Positions 1 through 53,692 of a stretch of DNA of 64,000 nucleotides are shown here, piece after piece; position 1 is the first letter of the stretch, and every line of letters starts with the position of its first letter. The stretch comes from Antedon mediterranea (taxonomy: Eukaryota > Animalia > Echinodermata). A program made the translations under genes and the position numbers. The notes under the pieces were generated by a model that had not been told where the DNA came from, made no database searches, and saw only the letters and a list, made by a program, of their open reading frames with translations. The stretch lies in NCBI RefSeq assembly GCF_964355755.1, contig NC_092670.1:2470201-2534200 (forward strand), written 5' to 3'.

Positions 1-74
1 TCTTCACCAACTTGTGAATGCGTAGTGTATGTAATATCAAATTCTGTAAACTATATAATATTATAATTTTACAG

Positions 75-15300: not shown

Positions 15301-16652
15301 TATGAGCAGACTTGCCTCCAAAGAAGTACTATTCACTAATATACCTTGAGAGTTTCTGGTTTAAACTATGGGCAGACTTGCCTCCAAAGAAGTACTATTC
15401 ACTAATATACCTTGAGAGTTTCTGGTTTAAACTATGGGCAGACTTGCCTCCAAAGAAGTACTATTCACTAATATACCTTGAGAGTTTCTGGTTTAAACTA
15501 TGAGCAGACTTGCCTCCAAAGAAGTACTATTCACTAATATACCTTGAGAGTTTCTGGTTTAAACTATGGGCAGACTTGCCTCCAAAGAAGTACTATTCAC
15601 TATTATACCTTGAGAGTTTCTGGTTTAAACTATGAGCAGACTTGCCTCCAAAGAAGTACTATTCACTAATATACCTTGAGAGTTTCTGGTTTAAACTATG
15701 AGAAGACTTGCCTCCAAAGAAGTACTATTTAAACTATGGGCAGACTTGCCTCTAAAGAAATACTATTTAAACTATGAGCAGACTTGCCTCTAAAGAAATA
15801 CTATTTAAACTATGAGCAAACTTGCCTCTAAAGAAGTACTATTTAAACTATGAGCAGACTTGCCTCCAAAGAAGTACTATTTAAACTATGAGCAGACTTG
15901 CCTCCAAAGAAGTACTATTCACTAATATACCTTGAGAGTTTCTGGTTTAAACTATGAGCAGACTTGCCTCCAAAGAAGTAGTAGTCACTAATATACCTTG
16001 AGAGTTTCTGGTTTAAACTATGAGAAGACTTGCCTCCAAAAAAGTACAAGTTACTAATATACCTTGAGAGTTTCTGGTTTAAACTATGAGAAGACTTGCC
16101 TCCAAAAAAGTACAAGTTACTAATATACCTTGAGAGTTTCTGGTTTAAACTATGGGCAGACTTGCCTCCAGAGAAATACAAGTTACTAATATACGTTGAG
16201 AGTTTCTGGTTTAAACTATGAGCAGACTTGCCTCCAAAAAAGTACAAGTTACTAATATACCTTGAGAGTTTCTGGTTTAAACTATGGGCAGACTTGCCTC
16301 CAGAGAAATACAAGTTACTAATATACCTTGAGAGTTTCTGGTTTAAACTATGGGCAGACTTGCCTCCAGAGAAATACAAGTTACTAATATACCTTGAGAG
16401 TTTCTGGTTTAAACTATGGACAGACTTGCCTCCAGAGAAATACAAGTTACTAATATACCTTGAGAGTTTCTGGTTTAAACTATGGACAGACTTGCCTCCA
16501 GAGAAATACAAGTTACTAATATACCTTGAGAGTTTCTGGTTTAAACTATGGACAGACTTGCCTCCAGAGAAATACAAGTTACTAATATACCTTGAGAGTT
16601 TCTGGTTTAAACTATGAGCAGACTTGCCTCCAAAGAAGTACTATTCACTAAT
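12369..16652. repeat. 66-bp minisatellite, about 65 units, with a 38-bp deleted sub-array at about 15728-15915
   Basis: Unit AATATACCTTGAGAGTTTCTGGTTTAAACTATGAGCAGACTTGCCTCCAAAGAAGTACTATTCACT repeats head-to-tail. Confidence 0.97.
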
Positions 16653-17009
16653 ACTATTACTATTAATATTCCCATACCAATGGTTGAACCAATTCTCCAA
16701 AATAATACCTCCCCCGCCCTATGGTGGGGCATTAATGTTCAACTGGCTCTCTTTATAAACAAAAACCCAAGTTAACTTCCCTTGCAAATAATTACTTTAT
16801 ACAAATAAGATAATTCAATACTGAAGTTGACAGCATATTCACAAAACCACTAAAATTATCCTATTCCAATGGTTGAGCAGATTTAGCTCCTATTATGGAA
16901 TATCTCATGTGAATGGTTGATCTAAATCCTCAGAGTGCTATGCCTACTATTATTATTATTGTAAATTAAGAAAGCCTAACATAAGTTATTTATGCCTTGC
17001 AGAAGGATT

Positions 17010-17762
17010 AGAACACGATAAGATCTAACTTGGGTGACTGAGGTGGGACCCCTACATTTAACACATTCAGACTAGGTGGGTACTAGAACATAAGATAAGA
17101 TCTAACTTGGGTCACTGAGGTTGGACCCCTACATTTAACACATTCAGACTAGGTGGGTACTAGAACATAAGATAAGATCTAACTTGGGTCACTGAGGTTG
17201 GACCCCTACAATTAACACATTCAGACTAGGTGGGTAATAGAACATAAGATAAGATCTAACTTGGGTCATTGAGGTGGGACCCCTACAATTAACACATTCA
17301 GACTAGGTGGGTACTAGAACATAAGATAAGATCTAACTTGGGTCACTGAGGTGGGACCCCTACATTTAACACATTCAGACTAGGTGGGTACTAGAATATA
17401 AGATAAGATCTAACTTGGGTCATTGAGGTGGGACCCCTACAATTAACACATTCAGACTAGGTGGGTACTAGAACATAAGATAAGATCTAACTTGGGTCAC
17501 TGAGGTGGGACCCCTACATTTAACACATTCAGACTAGGTGGGTACTAGAACATAAGATAAGATCTAACTTGGGTCATTGAGGTGGGACCCCTACATTTAA
17601 CACATTCAGACTAGGTGGGTACTAGAACATAAGATAAGATCTAACTTGGGTCACTGAGGTGGGACCCCTACATTTAACACATTCAGACTAGGTGGGTACT
17701 AGAACATAAGATAAGATCTAACTTGGGTCACTGAGGTCAAACTCCTACATTTAACATATTCA
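17010..17762. repeat. 77-bp minisatellite, about 10 units
   Basis: Unit AGATAAGATCTAACTTGGGTCACTGAGGTGGGACCCCTACATTTAACACATTCAGACTAGGTGGGTACTAGAACATA (for example at 17401 and 17478). Confidence 0.95.
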
Positions 17763-17862
17763 GGCATAGTGGTATTAGTAACCTACGAACCCTAACACAC
17801 AAGCCCAACAGAGTAAAGTCCTATTTCTATCCTAGTGTAGCATTAGGATAACGTATCTCAAC

Positions 17863-19075: not shown

Positions 19076-22000
19076 CTAAAACAAAGATAGTAGACGAGTT
19101 TATAAATTTTAAATGACGTATTTCTCGTAGTGTGAATGGTGAATTTGACCATTAACTCCAGATTCATATCATTTCATAGGATAGGCCCAGCTGATGTACA
19201 CATTTAATTTTGTAAAAAGTGTCGTCGACAATATATATATTTCCAATACATTTACTGTAATTCAACCAATGTAATTGAGGTATTGGGCAGAGTCAGAGTC
19301 AAAACCTATACAGAGATAAATTAATTGCCTTTTGGAATTAGTTTGAACACTGATATGAGGGTATGTTCAAATCCATGGAGTTATGCTTTCATATCACAAG
19401 CAAGGTTATATTATAATTATCCTCTGAAGTGTCAAGTTTCCGGTATGCAAGAGTAAATTTTATTTCAAAATCATTGGTGCATGACTTTCATATCGTAAGT
19501 GTTGTACACTAATCTTGTACCTCAAGCTGTAGTAACAAACAAAAGGTCATTATTGTATCAGGTGGCTTCTACCAATCTTTTACTGGTTCAGACTGCATGG
19601 AATCCTATGTCGTGTATAATACGAACACAACCCTGTAGGTCTAAATATGCCCTGAATGCTTCTTCAAACAATGCACAGTAATTAATGTCAAAGAAAACAA
19701 TTTAAAGGAGGGACAAACTGGTTTGAAAACATGAACAATGCGCAAATTAAAATTGTAATGTCTCAATTTACAAATTGTGACAATTGCCACCACTCAAATG
19801 TTACATTTGAAAAAAATGCATTGAAAATTGTCAACAAGTGTGTTCATTCAAGCCAAATTGAATTTATATTAGGAAATTGTAACATTTGTAATTTTAAATA
19901 CCTGTTAGTTTTATTTGTTTTTCTTTAGGTCTTTCCTCCACAACATTCTTCTGAAACTTATCAGCAAGATCTTTTTGTCCATGTTCTCTTAGAGCCTCAC
20001 ACAATACATCAAGTTGATTCAGTTTACTACTAATGTTCCTCCAAAATTTCAGAATTTCTTCTGGAGATTTCATAGTTGTAACTTCAGACAATTCCAAGCC
20101 CAAAAGAACACCTAACTGTTCACAGTTAACAGTTTCTTCAGATACTTTCCAAATAATTGAATCATCCACATAACCTTATAAAATAGCAAAAATTAAGATA
20201 AATTCATCCAACAGTAAATGAATTGATTAAGTTTTCAAATATATGATCCTTCAATTTAGAATGTCATAATAAAATCTACAAAATCATTACCTTGGAGATG
20301 AGACTGTGGCGGTATAGCTGTAAAAATAGATATGTATTTATCAACAAAATGTTCACAAAGTATTATTTGTTTGAAGATTGTTATTAGTTATTACAAGTTC
20401 TACAGTATGTTATACATATATTATTAAAAATGTACCCAAACTGTTTATTCTTAAAATTTACTTACATTCAACATCAGTCTGTGAAGTAGCTATAAAAAAG
20501 AAATAAATATTAATTTATCAATAAATGTAATTTCATCTTATATGGTATTACCATAGCGAAACGTATTGTTGCATTAATGTGCATATGGCTGAAAAAATAT
20601 TGTACCGTCCATTTCCCAATTTTTAATTAAATGCTTTTTATTTTAATATTAAGAACAGTAAAATATTTGACAAAGCAATAAATCTGGTTACTTACATCTT
20701 GGTATTACTTTATTTCCAAATAATTTACGGTAAAGTTTCACTTTCATTTGATTGCTTCCACAAGGTAACACATCTTTGTCAAACTCGCGAATAACATGCA
20801 TGTGAGCATTTTGAATGTTTGGACTACATGCACAAGGGATGTACATCCTTACTTCAAGACCTCGTGCTCCAGTCTGACTGAACACTTTTAATTCTGTTTG
20901 AAGGAAACGAAGCACCTAAAAAATGGCATTTTACAAAATGTTTAAAATACTGGAAAATATAAAATCAATATTCTCAATCAATATTACTATGAAAATTGAA
21001 TCCTAAACAAATGTTGAATAAATGCAAATTATTTTAACAATGGTGGCCTTTTATTATAGGATAAAAAGTACTTATTATATTAAAACACTTTATTTATATT
21101 ATTTTTATGAATAGTTTTAAAGTAATATTCCTAATGAAATCTTTCATAGATTGTTCACTCATAAATATTTAGAACTAAAATTAATGTATTCTGTATATCT
21201 CTTTTGTTTGTTACCACTATTTACTATTACCTTCTTACAGACTTTAGGCTGTGGTTTCTCATCTTTTGTACGCTGCCGTTTTTTTTGCTTATCAGTATTG
21301 AAGCTCTTTGTTCTGACTATTGTTGTCTACAATATCAAAATGATAAAAATTGTTAGTGGTAGTTTTTTAAAATTTATTATTTCAATTTTATGTGGTGGAA
21401 ACAATTATAAATCTCACTCATTTTAATATTGTACAATATATACACTTTAAAATTCTTGAGCTTTTCCAACTTGTATCAATTATTGATATAAAGTTTGCGA
21501 TACACCACGTATATTAGTTTCTATTGAGTTTCTCAAAGTTTCGATCAATATGCTTTGAACGTCCTCAGGAGTCACAATGCAGGAAGTCCAGGAAAGTGGG
21601 AATATAAGTGAAATAGGTTGGGGCTGGTGTGAAAGCTACACATTTACCTGTAACATACGACAATGCTTAATGGTAGCCACATATAAAATGACTTGATGAT
21701 TGGCATCAATGTTCAATTCTACATGCTCATAGGATAGGTGCCCAATTCCATAGTCTTCCATTTGAAATTTCTCAATGAACTTTGTTGCAGCACGTTGGAA
21801 AAGATCGTCTGGAAGATAGCTACCAAAATCATGAAATAGAGAAATTGCACGCTTTTCTTCAAATTTAGGTGGTTGTGAGGCATGTGGTTTCAAACGTGAA
21901 AGAACGTAGAACATTTTTTCATTATTCTGTGTAAACAAAAAATTATTTAAAAACTAGTAGATCTGTAGGCTATATATAGGCTAGAAAATTAAAATATTAA

Positions 22001-25000
22001 TATGACATTAGTATCAATACCTTTGTATTTTTTTGTTCACACACTAATCCAAACTTTTGCATGAGAGACACAAAGAATGTTAATGTCTCATCAGAATCAC
22101 AGATCTTCTCCCACAGATGTTTTAGCAATCCACCTTTTAAAATGCCTTTTTCCAGCATCCTCCAAGCTGGTCTCATAGCTGGTACCTATTATTTTACAAA
22201 AATAGAATATAATTAAAATTTTAATTTATTAATTCAGAGTAACATTGGTAGGCCTATAATTGATTTTTTTTTCTGTTCTAATATATAAACATCTCATGAC
22301 CTGTAGGCTATGTTTTGTTTGTCTTTATTGCAGTTCACAATATTTATGGTAAGCAGAATGACAAAGTGGATTTGTAGACTCATGTCTGCCAAAGCTACTC
22401 AGGCCAAGTTGAAATAATGTATTGATCTTTGAGTTCATATGATTGTATGATGGGTACCTATATCTCAGAGAAGTTATTTCCAATCAAAATTTCAAACATT
22501 TATTAAACAAATTTAATTTTGAAGCATGTCATTATGTTGCTGCACGTCAGTATGCAAAACATTGTTTTGTATTGAAATATATTTATTGCTAACCATATCT
22601 TTATTGTCTATGACAGTGATGATTGTCTTAAACATGTCAACTAGTTGCATCAAATCTACAACTATTATATCTCTTAGTGCCTCATCATCTGGGTAATAGA
22701 GAATCACGCCGATGTCATGTAAATACTCAAGCAGAACTTTGTGACCTTCTGTTACTTTACAGACTTCTTTGAGTACTTCATCTTGAATCTGTTAAAAAAA
22801 TAGATTGATTAAAACCATATGACAATTCTAAAACAGATGACAAATTTCGTTTTTGTAAAAGCACAAGTTAACGGAGTACTTACTCGAACGTTTCGATCTC
22901 TATCAGAGATCCTTCTCAACTGACTGCGGAGTGTTAATGCAGCTTGGTCATTCTTGACGTCATCTGTTGATGACGTTGTACGCCTCCGGTTGTAGGTTGG
23001 AGGTTGTGCGGGGCTCGGCCAGGTGATGTGTCTATCAAATCATTGTACAAATGCGAGAGTTCGTGGGCTCCAGTGTCCCGGTTCATGGTCTTCTCTTTAT
23101 TTCTCCTTATATGTAATGATTCTCTAATCTGTCTGTCTTTGCGTTTAGGCTCTTTGGTTAAGATGGTAGCCTCCCAGTTCGGTACATGATTGTGTTTTAT
23201 GACATGTTCTTATAAACACGCTTGTGGACAGAGCTGAGAAGGTAGTGGGAGATATGGATTTGAGGAAAGTTGAGATGGATAACATCAAGAAAGCGTTACA
23301 CAACTGCCAGTATCCAGAGTGGTCCTTCCAGAGAGTTATGGAAAACCGAAAAAGGAAAAAGAACAAAGGACACGAACCACAGAAGGAAAAGATCAAGATG
23401 CGAGGTAGCATAGGAATCCCCTATGTAAAAGGAATGGCAGAAAGAATACGACGCACTCTCTCCTATCACAATGTCGGAACCTATTTCCTACCCCAAAATA
23501 AAATCAAGAATAGCCTCGTCCACCCAAAAGATAAAATCGAGAAGATGGATACATGTGGAGTAATCTACGAAGTCACCTGCCGCAACTGTCCACAAGTTTA
23601 TATTGGGGAAACAGGAAGGGCATTACAAACACGAATTAATGATCACAAAAAAGATGTTACAACAAACACGGGGGGAGTAATGACTAGGGCCTCCAGAACA
23701 TCCACATCTTCGATCATACACAAATCTGCCATTACAGAACATGTCATAAAACACAATCATGTACCGAACTGGGAGGCTACCATCTTAACCAAAGAGCCTA
23801 AACGCAAAGACAGACAGATTAGAGAATCATTACATATAAGGAGAAATAAAGAGAAGACCATGAACCGGGACACTGGAGCCCACGAACTCTCGCATTTGTA
23901 CAATGATTTGATAGACACATCACCTGGCCGAGCCCCGCACAACCTCCAACCTACAACCGGAGGCGTACAACGTCATCAACAGATGACGTCAAGAATGACC
24001 AAGCTGCATTAACACTCCGCAGTCAGTTGAGAAGGATCTCTGATAGAGATCGAAACGTTCGAGTAAGTACTCCGTTAACTTGTGCTTTTACAAAAACGAA
24101 ATTTGTCATCTATACAAAATCGAAGCTAAATGAAATTCTTTCAAGAATTCTAAAACAATTATAATAAAAAAACAGTTTATTTAATATACTATCAATTTTC
24201 AAATAGTCTTCTGGATTACAAAACCTGCTCTGAAAACATTGTGTACTAGTATATTTAGAATGTAATTCCTCTATTTTTTATATTTTCCCAACTTTAATGT
24301 AACAGTACATAGTTATAAATACATACTATAGAGATTTAACTTTATATATCAAGTACATCTACTGGTGAATATGGTAGTTGACTGAAAGCTTAATATATTT
24401 ATTTATTCTGTCTTTATACTGAACTAGATGGTACGCTCGCTTCGCTCGCGTACCATCTAGGTCGTGCCCACAGATGGTTCTCGAATACATAATAATTTCA
24501 GCGTTAAAAAACTGGCGATTTCAAATGTACGTACCGCAAGACCATAATACATGTCGTGTACAGGAACGAATAAATAGACACTGTGATTTATGTACTCAAC
24601 TAAAATCAGCACCCTATTACTTCCGAAAGAGAAACTTGTCACAAATAAGACCAATTGTTTAAGTCAAATTTAAACAAACTTAATTTGTGTTTTGTATGTA
24701 ACATTAGGGTTGAGGGATGGGGAAGAGGATGGGTGCAAAGAGGAACAATGTTAAAATATATTCTTTATCCATTTAGTAACGAAATATTAATTGCTTTCAT
24801 GTTTTACAAATAATATACCACTAAACACAGTAAAACATTGCGATGTAATACTTTGTTGAAACTATCACCGTCCTAGTCGATTGAAATAGTACAGCACATG
24901 TAACGATACATCACTACGACGTGTATATGTTTATAATATAATGTAAAACAATTTGTGAAAACCACCTCTATTCGGGGAAAATCATAAATTCGATTTAATC

Positions 25001-28000
25001 GTCAATAAATATTAAATTATCTAACTCAACTTAATTAGTAGGCCTAATGGTTTTCAATTGTTTCTTAGAGCCAATTCATACTTAAGTTGGTTCCTACCCT
25101 ACCCACCAAAGTTGTTCTGCGTTTAGGGCATGTGATGTACCGTAGGCCTATTCTCTACTGGTTTTACAACGCTACTCATGCCAGTGAGGGAAAGGTGATG
25201 ATGTGGGTGGTTTAACTGCAATAATAAAGATTTGTACATAATATACGGCGAGTGAAAACGCTAGCTCATTATCCGTTTAAAAAAAAATTATATCCAACCT
25301 CTGCAGCACAGATTGAAAACAAAAATGGATCGAATTTCGAGTATACAGTACTGTACTTGCCTTTATATTACGACGCCTGAGGGAATAGACACTTGTGAAA
25401 CAGAGATTGGAATGTTCCATTCATCGCAAATCAATACATTTGTATAATCGTATATTAAATCTATCAAAATAGTATTTTTTTAAGAAAATCGGCCTGTCTT
25501 CAACATTATGATGCTGTACTCTAGCTGTTCAACCAGTTTTCAGCTATTAAAAACAATTATCATAGGAGGAGATAGGAAAATGCGAAGCCTCCTCGTATTT
25601 TTGTGGCGGGTATTTTTCAAGATGGACATCCATTAGACAGTGTATACCACGATCGGAAAACACCCCTATTTGGGGCAAATCGTTGAACCTAAATTCGTTT
25701 TAATCGTCAATAACTAATTACCTAACTCAATTTAATTAGTAAACAGGGTTACATCAGATGGTTAAAATCAGTACCGAAAGTATGAACCAACTTTATATAC
25801 CATCGAGTAGAAATTCTAGAAATAAACCGAGATTTACCGAATTTTGCCCTTACGTAAATTTATATATAGATGACACTTTCAGTGCTAAAGCATTGATTTC
25901 CAAAGTGGTTCAGTAGAGAAAAATTAACAATATAATAAATAAAAAGTAATTTACATTAGTAGACACATTTACAAAAAGGTAACTATCTACAAAACATACA
26001 GTATATATAAAAAAAATGGAGGGAATTAAAGGTAAAAGGTACTTAATCAGTAATAATATTAAAATCAATCCAAAATATTATTTTGGATTGAATTTTTAAA
26101 AAGTGTCATAGATTTAATATAAAAAAAATAATTGTTTTATTCAGGCCTAGGATTTTAATGAGGAATTTTATTTTTGTGCCTTAATGCTATGTGTGATTAT
26201 GCTATTTTCACTACAACCATCTGTATGCAAATTTGGTGGAATGGTTATGTAACCAGCCTTTCAACTAATAACAATAGTTTCAGTTGACTAACAATAGAAC
26301 AGCAATGCCAAAAACAAACCTCCAAAATTTAATGGAGTGGTCCTTGACTACATATCTATCTGTATTTTCATTTTGGTAAAGGTCTTTCAATAACTTTTGA
26401 GTAATCCTGCTAACAAACAAACAAACCGACAAACAAACAGACACATGCGATTGACTACATAAACCTCCTTGGCGGAGGTAAATAATTGATTGGTAAGAAA
26501 ATGTTAATATGAACCTATAGATGGCTATAAATTTACCTCTTACATCACACCACCTGTACATTTTCAGATGATTAAAAAGTAGCAATGTATACCGAAAATG
26601 GAGATCTGACTAATCAATATAGAAAAAATACTGTAAACCTTATTTGTGAATCTTTCTTTATAAAAGAAATTGCCACATTATTAATAATTCATTCAATTAT
26701 TAATATTGAACGCTATTGTCTATAAATTCTTGCACCTAACCTCAGAAGTTGGTAAATAGATGTGCTTCTTTCTGCTGTGGATTTCTTGTTGAACTCGCAG
26801 CCATTTTATTGGCAAAGTGCGAATCATTTTCTTTGACAAATCCAGTATTTGTTTCATGATGGCAGAAGCATTGCTCTGTTCAAATGGTACACTGTTTTCA
26901 ATGGTAAAAATAGTTGAACACACCATAGTTTCATATGGTTTGTCTTTTAGGGCTTCCCAAATTTTATTTTCTATTTCTTTAACCTGAAAGAAAGAAATAC
27001 ATTTGGTATGTAGTTTCTAATATTTCTTATTTTAATCAGATTAATTAGAATAATCAGACTATTTATATAGTGATTGCTAAACGTTGTGATCCAGTTTTAG
27101 GATTAAAAAAATAGAAGATTGAATCCACTGCCTATGAAAAAAGTTTCTGCATTGTTGTGTCATGGTGATTTCTCTATGGTAGAGTCAACTCACCTGTTCT
27201 TTCCTTTCTTCTTCAGTTCCTTTAAGGCCATTTAAATGTGTACCTATCAGTAATACAGGAGGACAAGGCTGACCATTTATCTTTGCGTCAGGTCTACTGT
27301 TTGTGTATATAGACTGAATCCAAGAAAGAATGAACTCCAGATTTGTCATTCGATGGTCATAATTGTTTCCCTAAATTTTATAAGTATATATGATAACAAA
27401 AAAATGTTTGTAGAACACTCAATTTTAATTTCTTTGATCATGTATAATACTGTATACAACAATTGAAAAAAACGTAATTGTTCAATCTATTGTTATTCAT
27501 TTATTCAGTAATGGAGGAAAAGAATGTTCATTTATTAATGTAGTTTGTGTTGAATTGTCTATGGATAAAAAGATGTGAGAAGCTAATTGATAAGTCTTAA
27601 AACTTTAAGATGTGTTCAGAGCAAAGGTATACATTTTTCACTATAAAGCAATCACAATCAAGGAATTGAAAATAGTGTTTAAAAACTAATAAAATTCAGC
27701 TTACAGTTGTTGGATCCAAAACTTTAGCTTGGGCATCGAGATCATCACAAAGGTTGAATACTACGCATACAACAGCAAAAGATACCATGAAGATCTATGA
27801 GATCAATTAAACAGTGTATTAAAAAAATGGTGAATATAAAAAAATGCTTGATTATCAATGGAAATGCAGTGTTTGTTTTTCATAGTGTTTTAATTTTTAG
27901 ATTAAAAAAATAGCTGAGTCTAGACTACTACTAAATTTATTACAGGTTTGCCATATGATAGATATTTGTTGCTAGAATTCATAAGAATAATATTTTACTT

Positions 28001-31000
28001 GTTTATTTTTTTACTACTGTATATTAGTGTTGTCTTATTAGAGGAATTGTGGGGAATATAGTTATATTACCATGCTGGGTCATGCAGGCTCCATGCCGGC
28101 ATCAGGTAAAATATCCAGTATATACCAGCTGAAAGTTGGTATATACTGGATATTCCGATCCCTGCTGTAGATAGTTATGCTGGTAACGATACAGGCAGTG
28201 GCATAACGCAGAGGCCTGATGCCCCTGGATTAGGAACCCCAGGCCCTCCAAGGCTGGAGGCCTAGGGCGTTTTTAGCCCTTTTTGACATATTTTAATGCC
28301 TGTATTTTCCTCTGGACACTGCCCAGGGCCCCCACATGCTCCGGGGCTCCTGGTTTTAGCCAGTGAGTGTTCATAGCCATTACGCCACTGGATGCAGGCA
28401 TCATTGGTCTCTTGAATTTGAATTGGTTGTTGTTTTTTGGCAGTTGGTGAGCATTCAATTATTTCCCTGTTTACCATTCAGAATCTCCTCCTGAATGCTA
28501 CCAATGATCTGAGCATTTACACTACCATTCAAAATATCTCCCTGAATTTTTATTTATTTATTTATTTAGGTTTAAAAAACACATACAAAACAGCAGCCAT
28601 TGGCTGATAACGTTTGTTTACAATCAATATACATATATAATTAAAAGTAAAAGAGGCACAATTACAAACAGCATAGAAAAATAACTATATATTATAAAAC
28701 ACAAAATACAGTATTATTCGTTCATAAAATTGAGTACGTCATTATTATTATTATTATTTAAGATTATTATTAGTATATAAATTATTAAAATTATTATATA
28801 AAAGGTCGAAACGGCATCGAGAAAGTGAGAAATAATCATGGAAATCAACCCATATCAGTTAGCATTAATAAACTTAACAATCGTAGGTATGGCAGACCTT
28901 TGGTATCGTTCAGTTTTACACCTGGGGGGGAAGGAGACTTCCGGTACTAGTTGTATTAGACCTAAGGGTTCTCTTCTGCCCGCGGCAAGGAGGTAGGGTG
29001 TCACGAAAGCTCAGACCACGAAAGCTCAGACCCCAAGACCTAAGATCACGAAAGCTAAGACCCAACACCTAAGATTACAAATACTAAGATATACTACAGC
29101 TTAAAAACAATACTTGTTTATCCATACATAATTTTAAACACAGTAGGTTTCATTTATTACCATAAATATAATTTAATACTACCGCAAAACATAGATAAAC
29201 TCACATTATTTTCGCCCGTTGAGTAAATGTATATTTTTTCTTTACAACAAACAAACTTGACGGGTTGTTTGTTGGTATATATTTACTCCATTGTGTTGGT
29301 TCAGAGGATGTTTTTCTTACGCACCTGCCTTTCTTGTATTTTGACTCCAAATTTGTTGGCTAACTTTATCCTGAACACCACACTTTAAAATTAGGACTTA
29401 TAAGTACTTTCAGAAGGAGAAACACATAATAACAAATAAATAAATCCTTTAAATTGATGATTTTACAGATGTGTTTCTTTGTATACTGTAATACTAATGT
29501 AACTCCTCGAGCTACCCATGCTCAATGTTTTTGTTTCTATGGAGCGCCAAAAGAGCAACAATAATAGTACAAGTATAAAAACAGAAAGAAAACGAAACAA
29601 AAAAACTTATCATGATTTTTAAATTAAAATTTATTTGCCAGTATTTATTTCTTCGTACTTACATGATTATACTATTATCATTACAATTTTAATTTTACAT
29701 TGTTCCATCCACACTGTAGATGGACTCCACAGAGTTTTCAGCCCTCTATATAATTTTTGCTCTTTTGACGTTCCATAGAAACAAAAACATTGAACATGGC
29801 CCATGGGGTAGGCCTACTGTACTGTAGGCTAGTCATTTTGTGTGCGAGAAAAACGTCTGTAAAATCATCAATTTAAAAATGTATTTGTTACTTTTTATGT
29901 GATTCTTTTTCATGAAAGTGCCAATTCTAAGGTGTGGTATTCAGAATAAATGTTGGGAGTTAAAATACAAGGCAGGTGCGAAAGATAAATATTTGTAATC
30001 TTAGGTGTTGGGTCTTAGCTTTCGTGATCTTAGGTCTTAGGGGGTCTGAGCTTTCGTGGTCTGAGCTTTCGTGACACCCCAAGGAGGTAGCATGTCTCGA
30101 AAACAGTTGGACTTAAGTAACCCCCTCCCAAAGGACAACACAAGAGTGTCTCTCCTTGCCTCGAGAGAAGGTAACCCTGTAACCTCTAGGGCATTGTCAT
30201 AGGAAATGTAGGTAGCACCTAACATTATTCGACATGCTCTTTTCTGGATGGTCTCAATGCTGCTGGCCATTTTTTTGGTAATAGCACCATGCCATACCTG
30301 GCAAGCGTATTCCAAGATGGGCCTATAATACTGGCATTTTGCTTCCACGCCTGTGAGAAAAGGGCTTTATGTACTTACCCGCTGCATCACATGATAAATT
30401 TGTTGTCCTCCGAAATCCCAGATGTTCATCACAAACTTGTCGCTAGTCACCTTGTCATCACTCCCTTCTTTCTGAAACTCAACTATTAATTTTTCAATTT
30501 CTGACGGAATCTTTATCTGGTCATCTCTTCCTTCTTTCTCAATCTCTATCTTTGAAGGAATCTTTGTCTGGAGTTTTTCTTTCTCTATATATTCATTAAA
30601 ATAAATTAAAATTAAACATCCAATAGCATGTTTAATATGTATGTCATTTTTCTAGGCCTTTTATTAGGATAATTTATTTTAGGATTCTAATTATTTTAGC
30701 AATGGTGATTATAATTATTAATTAATATAGAAAAGTGCATTGTTAGCCAAGATCCCAACAGAATAACACATTGTCTGATGATTTCAGGTTCCAAATTAGC
30801 TTCCCTAATAATTCTACTCGGCTTTTCGTTCCCTACTCAAAAAGAAGAGTTGTCGATATAGTGCCTTTGCAATTGCCACGTATCTTGAAAGCACTCTTCG
30901 TCAATTAGTGAGGATGGAATTTTAAGATATTCGTCTTTCATTGAATTTGTTTTGAGGATTTTTGTATAATATTTATTTTGTTTAATACTAATATACAAAT

Positions 31001-34000
31001 ATAGTTAACAGAGCTAAAGCTAACAGAGGTGCCTTGAAAATAGGTCTGGTTGTGTTTTAGACACAAAGGCCCATAGTTTTAATGAAACAAAGTTTGAAAA
31101 AAAATTTGAAATAGGCAAAGTATATAAAACATTAAAAGACACTAACTGTTCTAAAATCTTTAATTAAATTAATCCACCTTTTCCATCTTAAATCAAATAT
31201 GAAATTCCAGGCCACAAGTCAAAAACCCATGTAAAAGTCAGTGCTTAGTTTTGGTAGAGCAGACAGTGAAATATTAGGTGAAATGTAATAATAATGCACT
31301 TAAAATTCCTATTAACATTTTTACTTACCGTCATCCATTTGGCTTTCTTCTGTTTTAGTTGATTGTGCTGGATTTTCTTTCTCCATATGTTTCACAAGTG
31401 TTTTTTGGGGAGAATTTTCATTGCCAGAAGGCTGTTTTGCTGATGCTGTTGTAACCTCTGCTTGTAGCATACTATTCTTGTTATCAGAAGCATTTTCTGT
31501 TGATGCTGTTTCACGTTTTTCTTCTCGCACATCACCATCAGAACCATTTTGCTTTTCTTTCAGTTGTTTTGCCACATTTCTAGCAACTGTTTCCTCATAC
31601 ATTTCAGAAGCTTGAGCTTTAAAAAAATAAAAATTGATTTTGTATATTATACTTGGATACTATGAATATGTTAATTATTATTAAACATTTTAAAAGGAAG
31701 AAACACACATATCCATGGTAATTACAGAATAAATCTAGTTCTGTGTTGTACCAAAAATAATTTAGGTAAAAAGAAGCAAGGTAAAAAGAAGCAAGGTAAA
31801 AATGGTATCAAATTATTTTAAATTTGTTTAAATTAAAGCAGTAATCAAGAAATTGTATGTAAAACAGATTATTATATAAATAACATCCATAAAACATGAC
31901 AATATAACTTCATAATCAGATTAAAGAATTAAGGAATTTCTGTGAAGCAGCTTTCATCAGATAGCTGACAGCGCAGCAAGAAAAATATGGGAGGCTTTGT
32001 CAAAAAAGAAATGTTTGCAAACGTGTGTTGATAAATGTTGGCTAGTTTCGTAAGTATACTTCTTTAAAAAAAATTCAATTTCCAGTAAGCAGAACAATAA
32101 ATGCAAAATAAACATGGGCGGATGGAGTACCATGAAAATTGCCAATAGTACAAACAATTAAGCACTATCAAAGTGGCTCTCCAATACTTCAAACCAAAAA
32201 AATATATAAGGGTAAGGGGGTTAACAGTATTAAGTTTCGAATAGTACTTGGAATCCAGCACAACACATTTTTAAACAGGATAAAATGGAACAAGTCTGGG
32301 ACAAAGTCTTTGGTGCTAACTGGGTTAATAATTTAGTATTTTGCATCTTTTTTTGGTTTAATTTGCATGTTAATGTATACTTTCTGTTTCTTGCCATATT
32401 GTTTCATCTGCATCATCTTGAGAACACACTGTTTTTGTTGTTGCTATGGCATCAGTTATTTCATGCTTTGATTTAAAACTACAGAAAAAAATGAATATTA
32501 TTATTTCACTTCAATAGCCATACAATATATATAAACCCATCTTAATCATTCAATGTTATTCAAGTCAGCCTTTTGGGATTATATTAATATTATTATTAGT
32601 GTATTTATAACAAAAATGAATATACAAAGAGTAATATTTTTCAGTTGGCTCATAAAGTATGTTTTGGTGTCATCAGTTAATTAAAAGTAAATTCCCATAA
32701 ATTGATAATGATAAAATGCCTACAATTGAGAAGAATATGTTTAAATGCATATTAAAACTAAAATGTACACATAGATTATGTCCCGAGAGTCAAGATAGAT
32801 TTTCAACTCAAACCCCTCTCATTATACTTTAATAGTAGTGATATTTGGGGGAAAGCAAATATTTTTGGTTTTTTTAATTATTTGTCATTCAGAGCATTGG
32901 GGTCTTGGTGTATGTTTTTTTTTCTGTGGTCATTTAATAAATTGTTTTAAACAACATTGATACCACAATTTTCTTACCTTTTCCTTAGTAATGAATTAAT
33001 AGTAGAAGTTTTTCCTACTCCCTCAAGACCTACAAAAATAACTCTGCCTTGTTTAACTTCAGTTTTCCCTTCTTCCAGGGCTTCATTGAATGCTCTAACT
33101 GCTTCTGGTCCTCGAGCCCGTATGTCAATTGGAGTGGAATCTTGAAAAAATAAGTATTTAATAGTAGTTTTACAATAAAGTTATTATATATTTATTATTA
33201 CTATGCATTCATATTGGACACTTAATTAATACCGCTCACTTTTTTAAATCTTTGTAATCCTTGTTAATTTGCTTTTAGAATGATTTTATAATACACAATT
33301 TGTATTGGTTATTTAATTAAAATAACCGATACATTTTATTTTGTAAATAACAGTTGATAATAATAATATAAAATAGAATACTTTAAAAAATACCAATATC
33401 TTACCATCAAAGTTGCTGAGCCTTTGTAATATACTTGGATGCTGTAACATTGTAGTAGTACCAAGAAAACCTACTGCAACCTCTCTTGCCACCTTTAGAT
33501 TCTTACTTTCTCTTATCATCTTCCATTCCTTATCATCCAAAGGAGTAAGTAGTTGCCTTACATCTCCTGTACTTTCACTCTCTGTGTGTTCACTTTCACA
33601 TAATTTACACAAGTAAAATCCTACCAATAACTCTGCTATCAACTTGTGAAGAGGCATGAATATCTTACCAAAGTTTCTTTTGTTAGAAATCAGTGCTTTA
33701 TCATAAACAAATCCAAGTTTCAGGGCCATTTCCGCCATGTCGAAGTTACCTGCAGCTACTAGATTAATTCTGCTTATTGAAAGTTGATTTTCTTTCAAGC
33801 TGTTATACATACACTTTCCTAACAAAATCATAGCGTTTACATATTCAACTGGAGCGTATTCAAATTTATAAATATGTTTAGATGTTAGATATTTAACATT
33901 AAACTCATTCAAAGTACAGCGAATTATTTCTTTAAAAAGGTCAGCATTGTTTTCAGGAAGACTTCGACGGTCTTCCCACAGTACACAGATCGTTTGAAGG

Positions 34001-35171
34001 AACATTGGATTTTTGCACATTAAATATACTTCTGGATGTTTTTGCCTGGCCCATGTGCCAATACCTAATTCTTCTCTGAGGGATTTTCCCAATTCTGGTT
34101 TTCCAAAATACTCAAAGTGTTTTTCAATATACACGCCTATGCTCTTGTCATTAAATCCCTTAACCCTTACATGTACATCACATGCTTTTATGAATTCATC
34201 TATGTTTTCTGATATTGATGTAAATATCACACTACAATAGTTCCTCTTGAAAAGATGGATTAAGCTTTGATTATTAAATCTTAATTCATCTAATCCATCT
34301 AGTAGCAGCACAATCTTATGATCATTTTTATAGATGAATCGTTTAATCAAAGATGAATCTTGTGGGAGTTCTGTGTTCAAAATAAAATCTGTCATATCCA
34401 GTTGCTTCGCAATCAGATCAATGATGCTTTCACCTCTTTCTAAATCTCTAACCCTTAAAGGAAACACAATTTTACCTTTAATTGATAATGATAATTGCCT
34501 TAATATTGTAGTTTTACCAATTCCTCTTTCACCATCTATAAGAGCTATACATCCATGTGTGGAGCTGATCACATCTACCACTTCTGTTAATGTTGTTGGT
34601 TTGCAGCCTTCATTGTTTTTAGTTTCTTTGCGTAGTTCCAAATCAGTGAAACACATCTGCGACATGCTAACATTGTATCTACCAACCCTTTTTTCTGGTG
34701 TAAATGTACTGGCCCGACTGCAGAATTCCTTTTGTCTTTGAAACAGATATTGTTCTATCTTTACTAAATACAAAAAAAAATTTTTTGCTTGATTAAACTA
34801 TAATATTTAGTATCGTTTTATTAATTCTTTTTTTATTTATGTGGTATTTCATAAAGTTAATTCCTCAAACTATTATTTCTTTTAAATAATTTTAATTATC
34901 TAACTTAAATTAAAAGTTTATTGTAATGATTTTTGTTACGCAGTCGTACATAAGCTTTATAGAGTGAGTGTGACCCAATATAATTTATAGAAATAAAAAA
35001 TATAAAACCGCAATTAAAAATATGCTCAAACAAGGGCAGAAAACAAAGAAAATATGATTTTTACAAAGCATTTTTAGGATAATAAAAATTAAGTTCCACT
35101 TTAGAGTAAATAATATTGATCTAAAATTTTGTTTGAGTGTGAAAGTGGAATTATTCTATTAAAAAATTTTA

Positions 35172-35250
<79 letters not shown>

Positions 35251-38200
35251 TATAGATATAAAGTAATGAATTAGTTTAGTAGTTCAAGGCTACCAAATAT
35301 CTATAGTTCTTGTTAAACTTTGTTATACAACAGAAGTAGATGATACTTTCTAAATGTATTACCTTCGCTCTCCATCTTACTCAGTGCTCCTTTTGAAATG
35401 GATGCTATAGTTAGATAAACATATTTTTTTAATCAATTGCTGTTTATAGATGTATGTAGGTTATTATTTAAGATAGTTAGGTAGTAAGATAGTTAGTACT
35501 GTATTTGTTCAAAAAAGTTAATAAAATACCATCATCCGTATTACTTCTACAGTGTAAGGGAATTCTTCGTCCCACTCTGATATTTACCTATTCTAATTAC
35601 ATAATAGTAGTGTAGTCGTAGTTAAGAGTAGACGTGTACTAAATCACTCTCTGTAGCCTCACTACATTCAGCCTCACTACGCGGTGACAGTTCAAATTTC
35701 CCGCAGGACAGTTGTTGTGTTAGGGCACTCCTGTAGCCTAGCATTTACTTGCCGGTGTTTGTCTGCTGTACATGTACGTATTAATACACCATCATGGCCG
35801 GAAAGAATACAAGGAAAGGTGGTAAAAAGGACAGCGGTAAGGAGTGTTGCGAACTGAACACTGATACAGCACCTATCATTGATGTGGAACCGCTTACTAT
35901 TATTGTACAAAATGAAATTTCCAATATAATTAAAGGAAATACGAGTATTTTCAATGACCTAGCCGAGAAAATTGCGAGCATTGTTAAACACCAGCTGATT
36001 GAAAGCATTACACAAATTGTAACGGATGCAGCAATTGAAGCAATACGTTTCGAACTTGACGATACTAAAGATCGTCTCAGCAAAGTAGAACAACAGGTAG
36101 AGAACTTACAAAATGAGCTAGATGAAGCAGAACAATATTCAAGAAGGAACTGTTTGATTATTCAAGGAATAGAAGAGAAACAAGGTGAGATAACAGACAA
36201 TATAGTTTTGGATTTGTTTAAGAAAAAGCTAAGCGTAGAAGTAGATAAAACATGCATAGACAGGAGTCATAGATTGGGGCCAAAAGTTAAGAAAAACGGA
36301 AGAGCAAGAGGAATAATAGTAAAGTTTAGTTCGTATAATGTTAGAAATGAAGTATATAGAGCAAAGAAAAAATTAAAGGGGAGCCATATCTACATTCATG
36401 AAAACCTTACGAGCAAAAGATCAAGTTTACTACGTACTGTAAAGCAAAACTATGCATCAGTGGTATCTGCAGTTTGGACACAAGATGGTCGCATACATAC
36501 CATAATCACTGGCAGTAACGAGAAAGTTGTTTTATCCAGAACTTCCGATCTTAAACAATTACCTAAATGTAAAAGGTAATGTGTAAGAGAATTTTAAATG
36601 TCCTAAAATTGTATTTTATGTAGATAAGATGATTTTAGATTTTATTTGTAACGCATGTAATAAACCATTTAAACCAATTCAATTGTTAAACGAACATCGT
36701 ACGGGAAGCCTTTTAGACAACGACGTAGACGACGCTGAATTACGTAACGACTCTATTGTTTATCCTGCTTTTGGCATACTATGCAAATTATGCGAGATTG
36801 ATTGTACAAAGGGTTTTAAAATTGGTCATTTAAATGTCAGAAGTCTCTATAATAAGGTGGACCATGTTCGGAGTTTACTTTCGGAATGCCGTTTCCATGT
36901 TTTAGGAATTAGTGAAACCTGGCTAGATCAAAATATACATAATAGTGAACTTGCAATCCCAGGATACCTATTAGTTAGAACAGACAGAAATAGACACGGA
37001 GGTGGGGTGGCTATCTATGTAAACGAAAATGTTGATTTTGATGTCATTGACTTTGGTGAAAATACAATTGAATCGGTATGGATAAAAATTAAGCCGGTTA
37101 ACACTAAACCGTTCGTTATAGGTAATGTTTATAGACCACCAAATTCGTGTACTGGATTTGTTGATATAATGCATGATCAAATATCTTTTATACTAGATAG
37201 TATAAGAGAGATTATTGTTGTTGGTGACTTAAATTGGAATATATTTGATAGACAGCATTCTCGGAACATTAAAACCCTCCACCAAATTTTCCAATTAAAC
37301 CAGTATATTAAAACTCCAACGCGCGTAACGGAAAACAGTAGTAGTTGTATTGATTTAATTTTTTCAGATAGGGATGACTTTATAAGCAAAACTGGAGTTG
37401 TACCAATTGGAATTAGCGATCACTCATTGATATATGTAATACGTAAAAAAATTAAAATAAAATTGCCCCCGCGTATTTTACATACGAGAACCTTCCGGAA
37501 ATTTAACGAAGATATGTTTATTTCTGATCTTGCATCTGCTCCGTGGAGTATTTGTGAGGCGTCCGAGGATGCTGACGAGGCTTGGGACATTTGGAAACAC
37601 ATTTTTACTGATATTTGTGATATTCATGCTCCTATGGTGACGGTCAGGAGGAGGGGAACTGATATTCCATGGCTTACAGACGAATTTGTTTCCCTTTCTT
37701 GTGACCGTGATTATTTAAAACAAAAAGCCGAAAAAACTAAGAACATAGATGATTGGAATTCTTACAAAAAGGCAAGAAATAAATTAAATAATTTGTCTAA
37801 ATCACTAAAACGCGACTATATAAATAATAAATTAAAGGATAATGTTAATGACACTAAAACATTATGGAAAACCATGAAAGACTTTTTACCCAATAAAAAG
37901 AAACAAACTAAAACAACTCTCAATGTAAACGGTAATGAAATAAACAATCCAACTGATATTGCTAATCATTTTAATAAATATTTGTGTTCAATTTATAATG
38001 AACTTGCATCCCATTTTAATGACAACCAAAACGATATTACCGTTGAATCGTTATCACAATTTCAACAACGTTTCAACTTTAAAGATATTAATGGAAATGA
38101 AATTGAAGCTTTGTTGGAAAAGTTAGAAATTGGAAAAGCTACTGGAATTGATGGGATTTCCGCTAGGTTACTTAAAATTGCATCTTCACAAATTTCTCAA

Positions 38201-40452
38201 AGTCTTGCCTTTTTGTTTAACTGGTCATTAAGATCTGGTGTTATTCCAAGTGAATGGAAATGTGCTAAGGTTACTCCGCTTTATAAAGGAGGATGTTAAC
38301 ATGAACTTAACAACTACCGTCCAATATCTGTTATACCTATTGTTATGAAAGTTTTTGAAAGATGCATCCATAATCAAGTTATGAATCATATAAATGAGTT
38401 TAAATTATTATGTAAAAATCAATCTGGTTTTAGGTCGTTACATTCAACTTCTACTACACTGATAGATGTATGCAATTATATATATAAAAATATTGATAAT
38501 GGCTTGGTAACTGGAGCAATTTTTCTTGACCTAAAAAAGGTAGACCACAATATTTTATTACGTAAATTATGCACCTTTGGAATGATAAACACTGAGCTTG
38601 CATGGTTCAGTAATTATTTAAAAAATCGCAAACAATTTGTTAATTTTAATGGAAAAAAATCTGAAATTTTAAATGTCATCTATGGGGTACCACAAGGCTC
38701 AATTCTTGGCCCTTTGTTGTTTATTTTATGATGATGACTTACATGATAGTGTGGATGGGATTTGTAAAACAGTCCTCTTTTATGCATGTAAATCAAATGA
38801 AGAGCTTACAACAGTTTTAAGTGAACAGTTGGAAAATGTAAAACAATGGTTAGATAAACATAAATTAACTCTAAACATTGATAAAACCAAATACATGCTT
38901 TTTGGTACTCATGCACGTGTTAATAAAACAACAGATGAAACAGTAATTTTTGATAACATTCCGATTGAGAAAGTTGAAACGTTTAAATACTTGGGACTTA
39001 CATTTGATGAACAACTCTCATGGAAAGTACATATTGATTCTATATGTGCAAAACTATCAAAAATTCTACATCTATTTTATAGATTGAAAAGTTTTACATC
39101 TCCTAAAATTATTAAAAAATTATACAATGCTCTATTTTTATCACATATTGACTATTGTTCAACAGTCTGGGGTACTGGTTCAAACGCCCATATTTTAAAA
39201 TTGCAAAGGGTACAAAATAGAGCTGCACGATTAATACTAGGTGCTGATATTCGAACTCCTGTTAGACAAATGCATTATGATTTAGGTTGGCTAACAATTA
39301 AGACAAGAATTGAATATCATACAATTTGCACAATATTTAGATGTTTACAAGAATCTGTACCTTCATACTTATGTGATGTTTTGCAATATATTAGTAGTGT
39401 ACACAATATTCAAACCAGAAACTATGAAAATAATCTGTTGTAATTACCCAGATGTAACCTCGAAATATACAAACGTAGTTTTGTTTATTATGGAAGTTCA
39501 CTCTGGAATGGCCTACCTTATGAATTAAGAAAACAAAACAATTATAACCGTTTTAAATCACTTGTTAAGATTCATTTATTGTTGCCGGTTGTCTAGGATG
39601 GTTCCAGTGAAATATATTTAAATATGGTATAAAAGTTATAATAATAATGAGAACATGCATTGAAGTTTAAGTTTTAGTTTAAGTTTAGTTTAAGTTGTTT
39701 GTTTAAATGTGCCGTAGGGCCCCTCGGAAGAGCAGTTATTTTATTACTGAGAGGGCTACCCTACTGAAAGAAAACGAAATAAATAAATAACATGTTGATG
39801 ATCTATACACCTGTAGGCTATAAAAAGGATAGAATTATACATATTAAAATATTTTCAAAAAAAAAAAAATACTCCAGGTAAGTAAAATTATTTTACCCTT
39901 TATTAATTTATTTGCAGCCATTTGGTTGAGCACTTTAGCAAATCTTTCAGTTTTCTCTGGTGTACTATCTATTAGCTTTTCTACCTCCAGAAAGAACACA
40001 AAATCCCATATATCGTTATAATTACTGGAATCTTCAGTATAAAATGCAGCAATTCTAGGTAACTCTGATCCTCCGACATCTCTAAGACACTCAAACAGTT
40101 TTCTACGATACAGTGTTATTAACCTTTTACCACTGGTGGCATTGTATCCAGTGGTGTTTTGCTTATATTTTTCAACCAGCTTCATGGCTGCATCCAGCCC
40201 TGTCAATTCAGATATCTCTAACAAAATTTCCACATCATTAGAGGAGAAATGACCTTGAATATGCAATTTTGAAAGTAATTGTAATGCTGTTGTGCTATCT
40301 GTCAACAACGTGGAAACACTTAGTGTATTGTATAAAAGACACCTTAACCATTTGTATTTCCCTCCAGAATAATGTCTACTAAATTCGTCTAGTAAATCCT
40401 TGAATCTGTCTTCTTGACACGCCTCTTTGAGACTGAAGAATGACAAGTGCAT
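18513..40452 (-). CDS. Multidomain DED-DED / NACHT / Roc / COR / Death / DED-DED protein (NLR-ROCO hybrid), about 1687 aa, 19 exons: 40452-39897, 35404-35363, 34763-33405, 33140-32978, 32478-32381, 31616-31329, 30584-30379, 27794-27705, 27370-27194, 26983-26741, 22788-22594, 22185-22021, 21926-21648, 21326-21231, 20915-20696, 20489-20466, 20317-20291, 20174-19902, 19075-18513
   Basis: All 18 introns are GT-AG with compatible phases, and the total of 5064 nt is one open frame ending in TGA at 18515-18513. The true start is uncertain because there is a strong acceptor at 40433/40432. Confidence 0.82.
19902..20174 (-). CDS. Exon: Death domain
   Basis: VSEE..NCEQLGVLLGL...EILKFWR...LDVLCEALREHGQKDLADKF fits the Death-domain consensus (LGxxLGL, LxxW, LxxALxxxxxxDLA). 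Symmetric phase-1 exon. Confidence 0.8.
20696..22788 (-). CDS. Exons encoding the COR domain and a Cys/His-containing C-terminal extension
   Basis: LLEYLHDIGVILYY...LRDIIVVDLMQLVDMFKTII; GILK..LLKHLW...LMQKFGLV; FYVLSRL...YLPDDLFQR; then CAC...H.H...PC. Confidence 0.85.
23224..24012 (+). CDS. Penelope-like ORF 3' part: RT thumb/linker plus GIY-YIG endonuclease (truncated)
   Basis: L..CQYP, IPYVKG, HPKD, GVIYEVTCRNCPQVYIGETGR...RINDH, SAITEH, R.IRES..I, MNRDTG. Confidence 0.92.
   Translation: MDRAEKVVGDMDLRKVEMDNIKKALHNCQYPEWSFQRVMENRKRKKNKGHEPQKEKIKMRGSIGIPYVKGMAERIRRTLSYHNVGTYFLPQNKIKNSLVHPKDKIEKMDTCGVIYEVTCRNCPQVYIGETGRALQTRINDHKKDVTTNTGGVMTRASRTSTSSIIHKSAITEHVIKHNHVPNWEATILTKEPKRKDRQIRESLHIRRNKEKTMNRDTGAHELSHLYNDLIDTSPGRAPHNLQPTTGGVQRHQQMTSRMTKLH
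24021..24072 (+). ncRNA. Candidate minimal hammerhead-ribozyme-like motif in the Penelope pLTR (mirror copy at about 22875-22926, minus strand)
   Basis: TTGAGAAG, stem GATCTCT-gat-AGAGATC, GAAAC, gttcga, GTA. The core deviates from CUGANGA and stem I is unclear. Such motifs are typical of PLE pLTRs. Confidence 0.45.
24422..25871 (+). mobile_element. Helentron/HINE-like non-autonomous element
   Basis: Starts with hairpin ACTAGATGGTACGCTCGCTTCGCTCGCGTACCATCTAG and ends TATATATAGAT. A related start occurs at 63267. Confidence 0.45.
26225..26482 (-). mobile_element. Fragment of a DINE/Helentron-like repeat (TTACCTCCGCCAAGGAGG family)
   Basis: AAACCTCCTTGGCGGAGGTAA plus a (CAAA/CAGA)n tract. Same family as 62429-63022. 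Confidence 0.55.
26741..33140 (-). CDS. Exons encoding the Roc GTPase domain and the start of COR
   Basis: P-loop RVIFVGLEGVGKTS (33140-32978), switch I HEITDAI (32478-32381), switch II NIWDFGGQQIYH (30584-30379), VCVVFNL (27794-27705), WIQSI...PPVLLIGTHLN (27370-27194), FTIEN...LPIKWL (26983-26741). Confidence 0.9.
28196..28390. mobile_element. hAT-like MITE
   Basis: TIRs CAGTGGCATAA / TTACGCCACTG, with an 8-bp near-identical TSD GATACAGG / GATGCAGG. Confidence 0.75.
28550..30362 (-). mobile_element. 3' fragment of a non-LTR retrotransposon (CR1/L2-like group), split by a MITE
   Basis: RPILEYACQVWH...IETIQKRACRIMLG...LPSLEARR...FRDMLPP resumes beyond the MITE as ...PRCKTERYQRSAIP. A (TAAA)n tail lies near 28550-28568. 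Confidence 0.8.
28996..30079. mobile_element. MuDR/foldback-like MITE nested in the LINE fragment
   Basis: TIR GGGTGTCACGAAAGCTCAGACC / GGTCTGAGCTTTCGTGACACCC, an exact 10-bp TSD CAAGGAGGTA (28986-28995 and 30080-30089), and long internal inverted arms. Confidence 0.9.
33405..34763 (-). CDS. Exon: NACHT (STAND) NTPase with helical and winged-helix subdomains
   Basis: Pre-NACHT FTDLEL, Walker A IALIDGERGIGKTT, Walker B VLLLDGLDE, VRVKGF, CKNPMFL, LGKCMY, and winged-helix PLHKLIAELLVGFYL. One 1359-nt exon, phase 1 at both ends. Confidence 0.92.
35177..35247. repeat. (TA)n microsatellite
   Basis: About 35 TA units. Confidence 0.97.
35794..36579 (+). CDS. LINE ORF1 (coiled coil plus RRM-like, L1 transposase_22-type)
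   Basis: EQYSRRNCLIIQGI.E, IDRSHRLG, R.IIVKF, IYIHENLT, VWTQDG.I. Confidence 0.9.
   Translation: MAGKNTRKGGKKDSGKECCELNTDTAPIIDVEPLTIIVQNEISNIIKGNTSIFNDLAEKIASIVKHQLIESITQIVTDAAIEAIRFELDDTKDRLSKVEQQVENLQNELDEAEQYSRRNCLIIQGIEEKQGEITDNIVLDLFKKKLSVEVDKTCIDRSHRLGPKVKKNGRARGIIVKFSSYNVRNEVYRAKKKLKGSHIYIHENLTSKRSSLLRTVKQNYASVVSAVWTQDGRIHTIITGSNEKVVLSRTSDLKQLPKCKR
36629..39596 (+). pseudogene. LINE ORF2 (AP endonuclease plus reverse transcriptase), inactivated
   Basis: HLNVRSL, ISETWL, YRPP, GDLN, SDH; then NYRPIS, QSGFR, GVPQGSILGPLLF. Premature TAA at 38297-38299, a frameshift near 38728, deletions of the AFDT and YADD motifs, and another stop at 39441-39443. Confidence 0.9.
39897..40452 (-). CDS. 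Exon: N-terminal tandem DED-like (death-fold) pair
   Basis: FKDLLDEFS...LRCLL...ALQLLSKL....FSSNDVEILLEISELTG, then YRRKLFECLRDV...L...WDFVFFLE. This is the helical pattern of two DEDs and parallels the last exon. Phase-1 donor at 39896. Confidence 0.65.
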
Positions 40453-53530: not shown

Positions 53531-53692
53531 CGCTACTCACGGTTTCACGTTTTTTATTTGTTGGACGCCTCACTGCGACGTTCTCTCGGCGCTCTGTCGG
53601 CGGTGCAGGGGTTAGCTAGCCTAGCTGACTTTCTCGTTATTTTACGCAAAGGAATCTTGATTAATTCTCCTGTCCTTTGGTCGGGGTCACCA

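Follow-up and report, generated by a model that had tools for sequence, protein, structure and literature searches.

The window analysed here, a stretch of 64,000 nucleotides from the crinoid Antedon mediterranea (NC_092670.1, positions 2,470,201 to 2,534,200), carries on its minus strand a gene model of 18 exons running from 40432 to 18513 (Table 1), with a single terminal stop. An AG acceptor is found at every exon and a GT donor at 17 of 17 internal exons. A pseudogene is unlikely, as the predicted reading frame stays free of stops over 1666 codons across the 18 exons. From residue 724 onward, i.e., over its last 943 residues, the product is identical to the RefSeq protein P0001 of A. mediterranea, which is not independent support because the record probably derives from the same assembly. 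The RefSeq model begins downstream of the P-loop and switch I exons, and the joining of the first four exons to the gene is a prediction from exon phase. The model of a duplicate locus, P0037 (XP_071946662.1), does connect the end of the NACHT exon with the P-loop and switch I. P0037 is the product of a very recent duplication: it is identical to P0001 at 941 of 943 residues (99% over the shared part), with a different and shorter NACHT part. The weak donor at the switch I exon, together with the later RefSeq start, may point to a shorter form lacking G1 and G2 or to a split gene model. No start exon was found upstream of the DED-like exon, and no match to the NACHT stretch was reported in RNA data.

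Table 1. Features of the Roc-COR gene in the window, in order of the protein.
Feature	Position	Strand	Basis or remark
DED-like exon	39897..40432	-	Pfam DED 0.029, below cut-off; about 31% identical to DED-bearing P0003
NACHT exon, Walker A GERGIGKT, Walker B LLLDGLDE	33405..34763	-	PF05729 1.5e-12
P-loop exon, G1 GLEGVGKT at 33030-33007	32978..33140	-	motif and frame
Switch I exon, HEITDAI with G2 Thr; weak donor GTATAC (32381-32376 edge)	32381..32478	-	motif
Exon of disordered insert within Roc; start of P0001 model	31329..31616	-	RefSeq comparison, structure model
G3 exon, WDFGGQ at 30420-30403	30379..30584	-	motif
Switch II / beta-4 exon	27705..27794	-	joint to G4 exon in X8 contigs (a relative)
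G4 exon, 59 codons, 177 nt, AG..GT	27194..27370	-	100% identical to P0001
G4 motif GTHLN (GGT ACA CAT TTA AAT; Asn codon AAT at 27232-27230)	27230..27244	-	sequence; alignment with LRRK2 GTHLD
Exon with G5, Roc end and COR start	26741..26983	-	gene model
G5 Glu-Asn codons GAA AAC in TIENS (Glu at 26899-26897)	26894..26899	-	Glu at place of Asn in LRRK2 G5 NAT
Five COR exons: 22788-22594, 22185-22021, 21926-21648, 21326-21231, 20915-20696	20696..22788	-	COR-A
Death domain exon	19902..20174	-	PF00531 6.7e-5, above cut-off
Last exon, helical domain and stop codon	18513..19075	-	repeated in paralogue P0004

The predicted protein consists of a DED-like domain, NACHT, Roc, COR, Death and a last helical domain, for which neither a Pfam match nor any similarity to the DED-like exon was found. 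COR follows directly on Roc, with the exons in one frame. On P0037 both domains are above the Pfam cut-off (Roc 3.1e-12, COR-A 8.3e-15), whereas on one exon of the gene COR-A reaches 2.1e-7, below the cut-off. Regarding the motifs shared by Roco proteins, G1 (GxxxxGK[ST]), the switch I Thr and G3 (DxxG) are all present. The Roc stretch of P0037 was modelled with AlphaFold2 at a pLDDT of 76, its insert being disordered. In VIA comparisons the first rows for the Roc model are LRRK1 and LRRK2 (Z 18.4-18.8), tied within 1 with RagD and Rab32; the LRRK2 match has Z 18.8 and rmsd 4.1 over 197 aligned residues, the LRRK1 match Z 18.6 and rmsd 2.7 over 179. LRRK1 and LRRK2 rank first in Foldseek, and for one relative searched in the ESM Atlas Roc/COR clusters alone were returned. 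The modelled domain is a small-GTPase Roc fold.

As in NLRs, a NACHT domain is found. Its exon shares a reading frame with that of the Roc P-loop (34763-32978, minus strand), giving two P-loop NTPases per protein; no LRR was detected by Pfam on the 10 exon-bearing frames or on P0037, and NACHT leads straight into Roc. Since NACHT and Roc-COR also occur together in P0154 and P0171, the fusion is not unique. Other Roc-COR partners vary among P0003, P0006, P0007, P0060, P0085, P0089 and P0106, where DED repeats, caspase, TAZ/KIX, Macro, kinase, Ras, fibronectin III and CARD domains can be found, a predicted diversity suggesting active domain shuffling. The DED, caspase, Death, TIR, CARD, Macro and NACHT partners of the relatives probably indicate an immune or cell-death role.

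Several mobile elements and repeats lie in and around the gene. A LINE-like element (35785-39443, plus strand) with endonuclease (PF03372) and reverse transcriptase (PF00078) similarity across several frames is located antisense to the gene, within the intron that separates the DED-like exon from the NACHT exon. Other introns hold a GIY-YIG fragment of Penelope-like type (23203-24012, plus strand) and a high-copy fragment (30040-30366, minus strand) that resembles a LINE end and has no Pfam match. Elsewhere in the window, an LTR retrotransposon (51190-53536, minus strand) shows gag-like and reverse transcriptase/RNase H regions in two overlapping frames, and a Mutator-like transposase fragment is found at 18-914 (plus strand; PF20700, 2.1e-6). 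Tandem arrays occupy 12369-16653, 17017-17763 and 44298-46421; their units measure 66 bases (about 51 plus 12 copies, 95-97% matches), 77 bases (about 10 copies) and 88 bases, the last forming two adjacent arrays in apparently opposite orientation.

The preliminary description of this DNA drew attention to the G4 motif, read as GTHLN, next to an intact P-loop and WDFGGQ. All these letters are present on re-reading, on separate exons. The canonical G4 pattern [NT]xxD ends in an aspartate, and the motif found here ends in Asn. In a profile of 75 relatives, GTHLN aligns with GTHLD of human LRRK2; the Asn therefore occupies the position of the G4 Asp, in agreement with the placing of the change at the guanine-specificity position. 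The motif is not a chance match: the pattern of two hydrophobic residues followed by [GA]TH occurs three times when the window is read in all six frames, and just one of these lies inside the Roc gene model.

The Asn is also a natural state, as had been proposed. It is common to the near-identical duplicate P0037 and to many paralogues, and the alignment of these, which had been called for, shows it to be fixed rather than private: GTHLN recurs in P0037, P0002, P0003, P0004, P0006 and P0023, P0005 has GTHFN, and two Anneissia proteins have GTHRN. Besides the duplicate locus, eight of the nine other distinct-locus Asn rows are other genes, P0024 and P0025 being from another species (Anneissia). 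A private change is thus ruled out by the wide occurrence of Asn among relatives, and a sequencing error or rare allele is very unlikely given the same Asn in P0037 and in the paralogue proteins. Reads from four runs of one sample were compared as contigs. A contig of run X1 (depth 104.5) spans 26882-27234, ending two bases past 27232, too few to count as bridging the codon, and has one other letter, at 27066, among the differences listed (40 of 250 rows). Exons are covered several to thirty times as deeply as introns, which is what a gene family would give. Contigs of run X8, from a related organism, comprise exons only and join 27361 to 27704, in a record outside which the codon 27232-27230 lies; members of the family are therefore apparently spliced there.

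A profile of 14 crinoid proteins retrieved 6844 representatives at E 0.001 or better, the best 150 of which were examined, a sample tilted to near relatives. Among the 125 of these 150 with an aligned G4 Thr, position 4 of G4 is D in 64, N in 25, E in 15, G in 7, R in 6, K in 4, A in 2, and H and Q in 1 each. The crinoid clade holding the gene (26 rows, support 100) has 9 G, 8 N, 6 E and one each of H, R and D. Proteins with Neuralized and/or TIR together with Roc and Death number 11 among the matches listed; Asn is found in 8/11, Asp in 2/11 and Lys in 1/11. The Asn carriers include proteins of Branchiostoma (amphioxus), Asterias (sea star), Octopus, Saccostrea (oyster), Tubulanus (nemertean) and the rotifer Didymodactylos, and the other states include Asp in Physella and Lys in Strigamia. 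G4 Asn is also found in brittle-star and Patiria proteins, and G4 Asp in a relative from Actinia. This distribution, from octopus to amphioxus, argues for an old bilaterian state, as judged with a quick, unrooted tree whose deep forks are weak.

What had been overlooked is the partner of this residue. The Glu of TIENS aligns with the Asn of the LRRK2 NAT motif (passages of bioRxiv 10.1101/2019.12.24.888222), which is the first G5 position. Judged from the sequences compared, Asn at G4 is an old subfamily state paired with Glu at that position. The pairing was counted in 144 proteins, i.e., a set of 181, of which 167 aligned to the core, minus two isoforms and the rows without the G4 Thr or either column. 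Glu stands at G5 position 1 in 61/76 rows without the G4 Asp vs. 7/68 rows with it, and an acid of either kind (D or E) in 75/76 vs. 56/68, in counts that share ancestry. The exceptions to the pairing are the seven rows with G4 Asp and G5 Glu, and 14 rows that have lost the G4 Asp and carry G5 Asp. In the crinoid clade, P0015 is both the sole G4 Asp row and the sole G5 Asp row, the other 25 having Glu. The one non-acid row without G4 Asp, P0075, also lacks DxxG and has Asn for the G4 His; it is likely a true pseudo-Roc.

On a comparative tree of 141 rows, built with the trait columns removed and three distant rows omitted, the two traits require at minimum 12 and 11 changes. The likelihood ratio in a Pagel-type test is 19.6 (p 6e-4), and none of 27 simulated nulls is as high; the null fits had a single start where the data had three, so that the null may be understated. 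Independent pairs (n=10) changed the same way in 3.9 cases, the opposite way in 0.4 and showed no difference in 5.7 (median p 0.25). This is not significant, so that much of the signal may come from a few clades. An evolutionary link between loss of the G4 Asp and gain of the G5 Glu is nonetheless likely from these comparisons. G5 position 1 is already Asp in 49/68 rows with G4 Asp, and hence an acid there may be structural.

The rest of the nucleotide site is preserved. DxxG is found in 68/71 covered rows without G4 Asp vs. 62/64 with it, and the rows without it keep the G4 His in 73/76 and the G5 Asn in 71/76. Of the rows without G4 Asp in alignment A2, 35/37 carry the switch I Thr; conservation of G1 in A2 is no test, because its rows were picked for the P-loop. 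Loss of the P-loop Lys, the switch I Thr or the G3 Asp would mark a pseudo-GTPase; all three are present in the gene and kept in its relatives.

In the textbook G domain guanine is read by the G4 aspartate, and the first G5 position (Ser145 in Ras) packs against this residue beside N1 and N2 of guanine. The reading preferred here, at a probability of roughly 45%, is that the G5 Glu reads the guanine edge and that the protein is a low-affinity GTP/GDP switch. The polarity of the G4/G5 pair would be swapped, the longer acid at G5 reaching N1/N2 and the amide at G4 holding it. With Glu reading the base, the G4 residue would be freed to drift, as it does in the echinoderm expansions, where it is G, E, H, R or K. 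The product would then act as a nucleotide-gated scaffold through which death folds signal; its family is lineage-expanded and probably immune. The residue pair, the open frame, the Roc fold, the bilaterian spread and the kept phosphate-binding motifs, all observed, are consistent with this.

A similar arrangement is presumably that of Toc33/Toc34, in which G4 ends in Gln and the Glu of a Glu-Asn G5 binds guanine. The gene and Toc34 would then both have a non-acid residue in the fourth place of G4 and Glu in the first place of G5. Unlike the gene, Toc33/Toc34 belong to another GTPase clade, and the solution could at most be convergent. No statement on the guanine contacts of Toc34 was found in the passages of PMC2173378, PMC8640212, PMC5084822, PMC12973003, PMC3994019 and bioRxiv 10.64898/2026.03.28.715002. 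Toc34 is not among the 50 VIA matches listed, which excludes nothing. Against Glu as a guanine reader, SpoIVA has a G5 Glu, elsewhere in the motif, that favours ATP (passages of PMC7952092).

Compared with other Roco proteins (LRRK1/LRRK2, DAPK1, CtRoco, MbRoco2), the gene shares the Roc-COR tandem, the G1-G3 motifs, the fold and, with LRRK2, a THx-type G4 (THLD in LRRK2). It differs in the Asn that ends G4, in a G5 of Glu-Asn-Ser instead of the Asn-Ala-Thr of LRRK2, in a long insert, predicted to be disordered, that separates switch I from G3, and in having NACHT and death-fold domains, neither kinase nor LRR being found. G4-G5 motifs vary in general among Roco proteins (passages of PMC6337361). 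Nearer are the Neuralized-Roc-COR-Death-TIR proteins, an architecture described from centipede, oyster and Aplysia in passages of PMC5094078 and PMC9334734 that do not mention the G4/G5 change. They share the Roc-COR-Death core and, in 7/11, the motifs TH[RK]N at G4 and [IV]E at G5; the gene, in contrast, lacks TIR and carries DED-like and NACHT exons where these proteins have Neuralized. No description of the Asn/Glu pair in Roco proteins was found in the passages of the mostly open literature covered (PMC8195603 among others), although supplements and alignment figures could show the motif.

A possible but more doubtful explanation is a pocket without strict guanine reading in an enzyme that would still be an active NTPase, base-tolerant or ATP-preferring in the manner of YchF/OLA1 and SpoIVA. 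The eight different non-Asp residues at G4 position 4 (125 of the best 150) and the kept phosphate motifs speak for it, as does the use of ATP by YchF and SpoIVA with an altered G4 (passages of PMC10144078 and PMC7952092). These GTPase-fold ATPases resemble the gene in having lost the G4 Asp naturally while keeping the phosphate motifs; they belong to other clades, the Glu of SpoIVA is third in G5 where that of the gene is first, and their ATP use has been measured, that of the gene product being putative. Irga6 D186N still hydrolyses GTP (passages of PMC3042988), so that weak, tolerant binding can be functional. The G5 acid in 75/76 rows without G4 Asp and the Asn in 8/11 of the old Neuralized/TIR group, however, resemble a kept arrangement and not drift. 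That the bilaterian-wide death-fold/TIR branch of Roco proteins rebuilt its pocket (G4 Asn plus G5 Glu) for a nucleotide other than GTP, either ATP or a deaminated purine such as XTP or ITP, is unlikely. It would, if true, be the first non-GTPase among Roco switches, and the crinoid paralogues would be retuning their pocket residue by residue.

Emptier sites have also been considered. The preliminary description allowed for a fast-exchanging Roc or a pseudo-GTPase; the former stands as something already true of ordinary Roco proteins, with affinities of 0.5-55 micromolar (passages of PMC6337361). From such a level a further large drop could empty the site, leaving a nucleotide-free scaffold in which NACHT or the death folds signal, and the RefSeq model of the locus does start past the P-loop and switch I exons, several paralogue models lacking G1. 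These exons are nevertheless present, in frame and included in the model of the duplicate, DxxG is kept in rows without the G4 Asp at the frequency given above, and the phosphate- and Mg-binding residues are kept, so that a pseudo-GTPase fits poorly and is quite unlikely. A natural xanthine-nucleotide switch, comparable to the engineered Ras D119N, EF-Tu D138N and Irga6 D186N, is highly improbable. The shift from guanine toward xanthine attributed to the D-to-N change does occur in engineered Ras and Irga6 (passages of PMC7952092 and PMC3042988), and the gene has the same residue at the G4 acid position, the commonest non-Asp state (29/77 rows). Even so, Irga6 D186N combines a nine-fold XTP preference with better GTP hydrolysis (PMC3042988, same passages). 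The xanthine specificity suggested for this Roc is a poor match to its close paralogues, in which G, E, H, R or K can replace the Asn; of these, the G, E, H or R of sister paralogues cannot form the Asn-xanthine contact. Unlike in the engineered proteins, G5 is changed too, being Glu-Asn-Ser and not of the usual Ser-Ala type, and Glu would be expected to repel the 2-oxo group of xanthine. Moreover, XTP is scarce in cells. Mixed cases, e.g., paralogues differing among themselves, may take the remaining probability.

The gene is by its predicted product a Roco protein gene whose base pocket has been rebuilt subfamily-wide, the family and its domain architectures being already known. With regard to the wider family, an old animal Roco branch that replaces the G4 Asp along with G5 is a natural test of how a G domain keeps or alters its base specificity, for which close paralogues offer natural Asp/Asp, Asn/Glu, Gly/Glu and Glu/Glu versions of the two residues. 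G4 alone is poor ground for labelling such proteins XTPases or dead.
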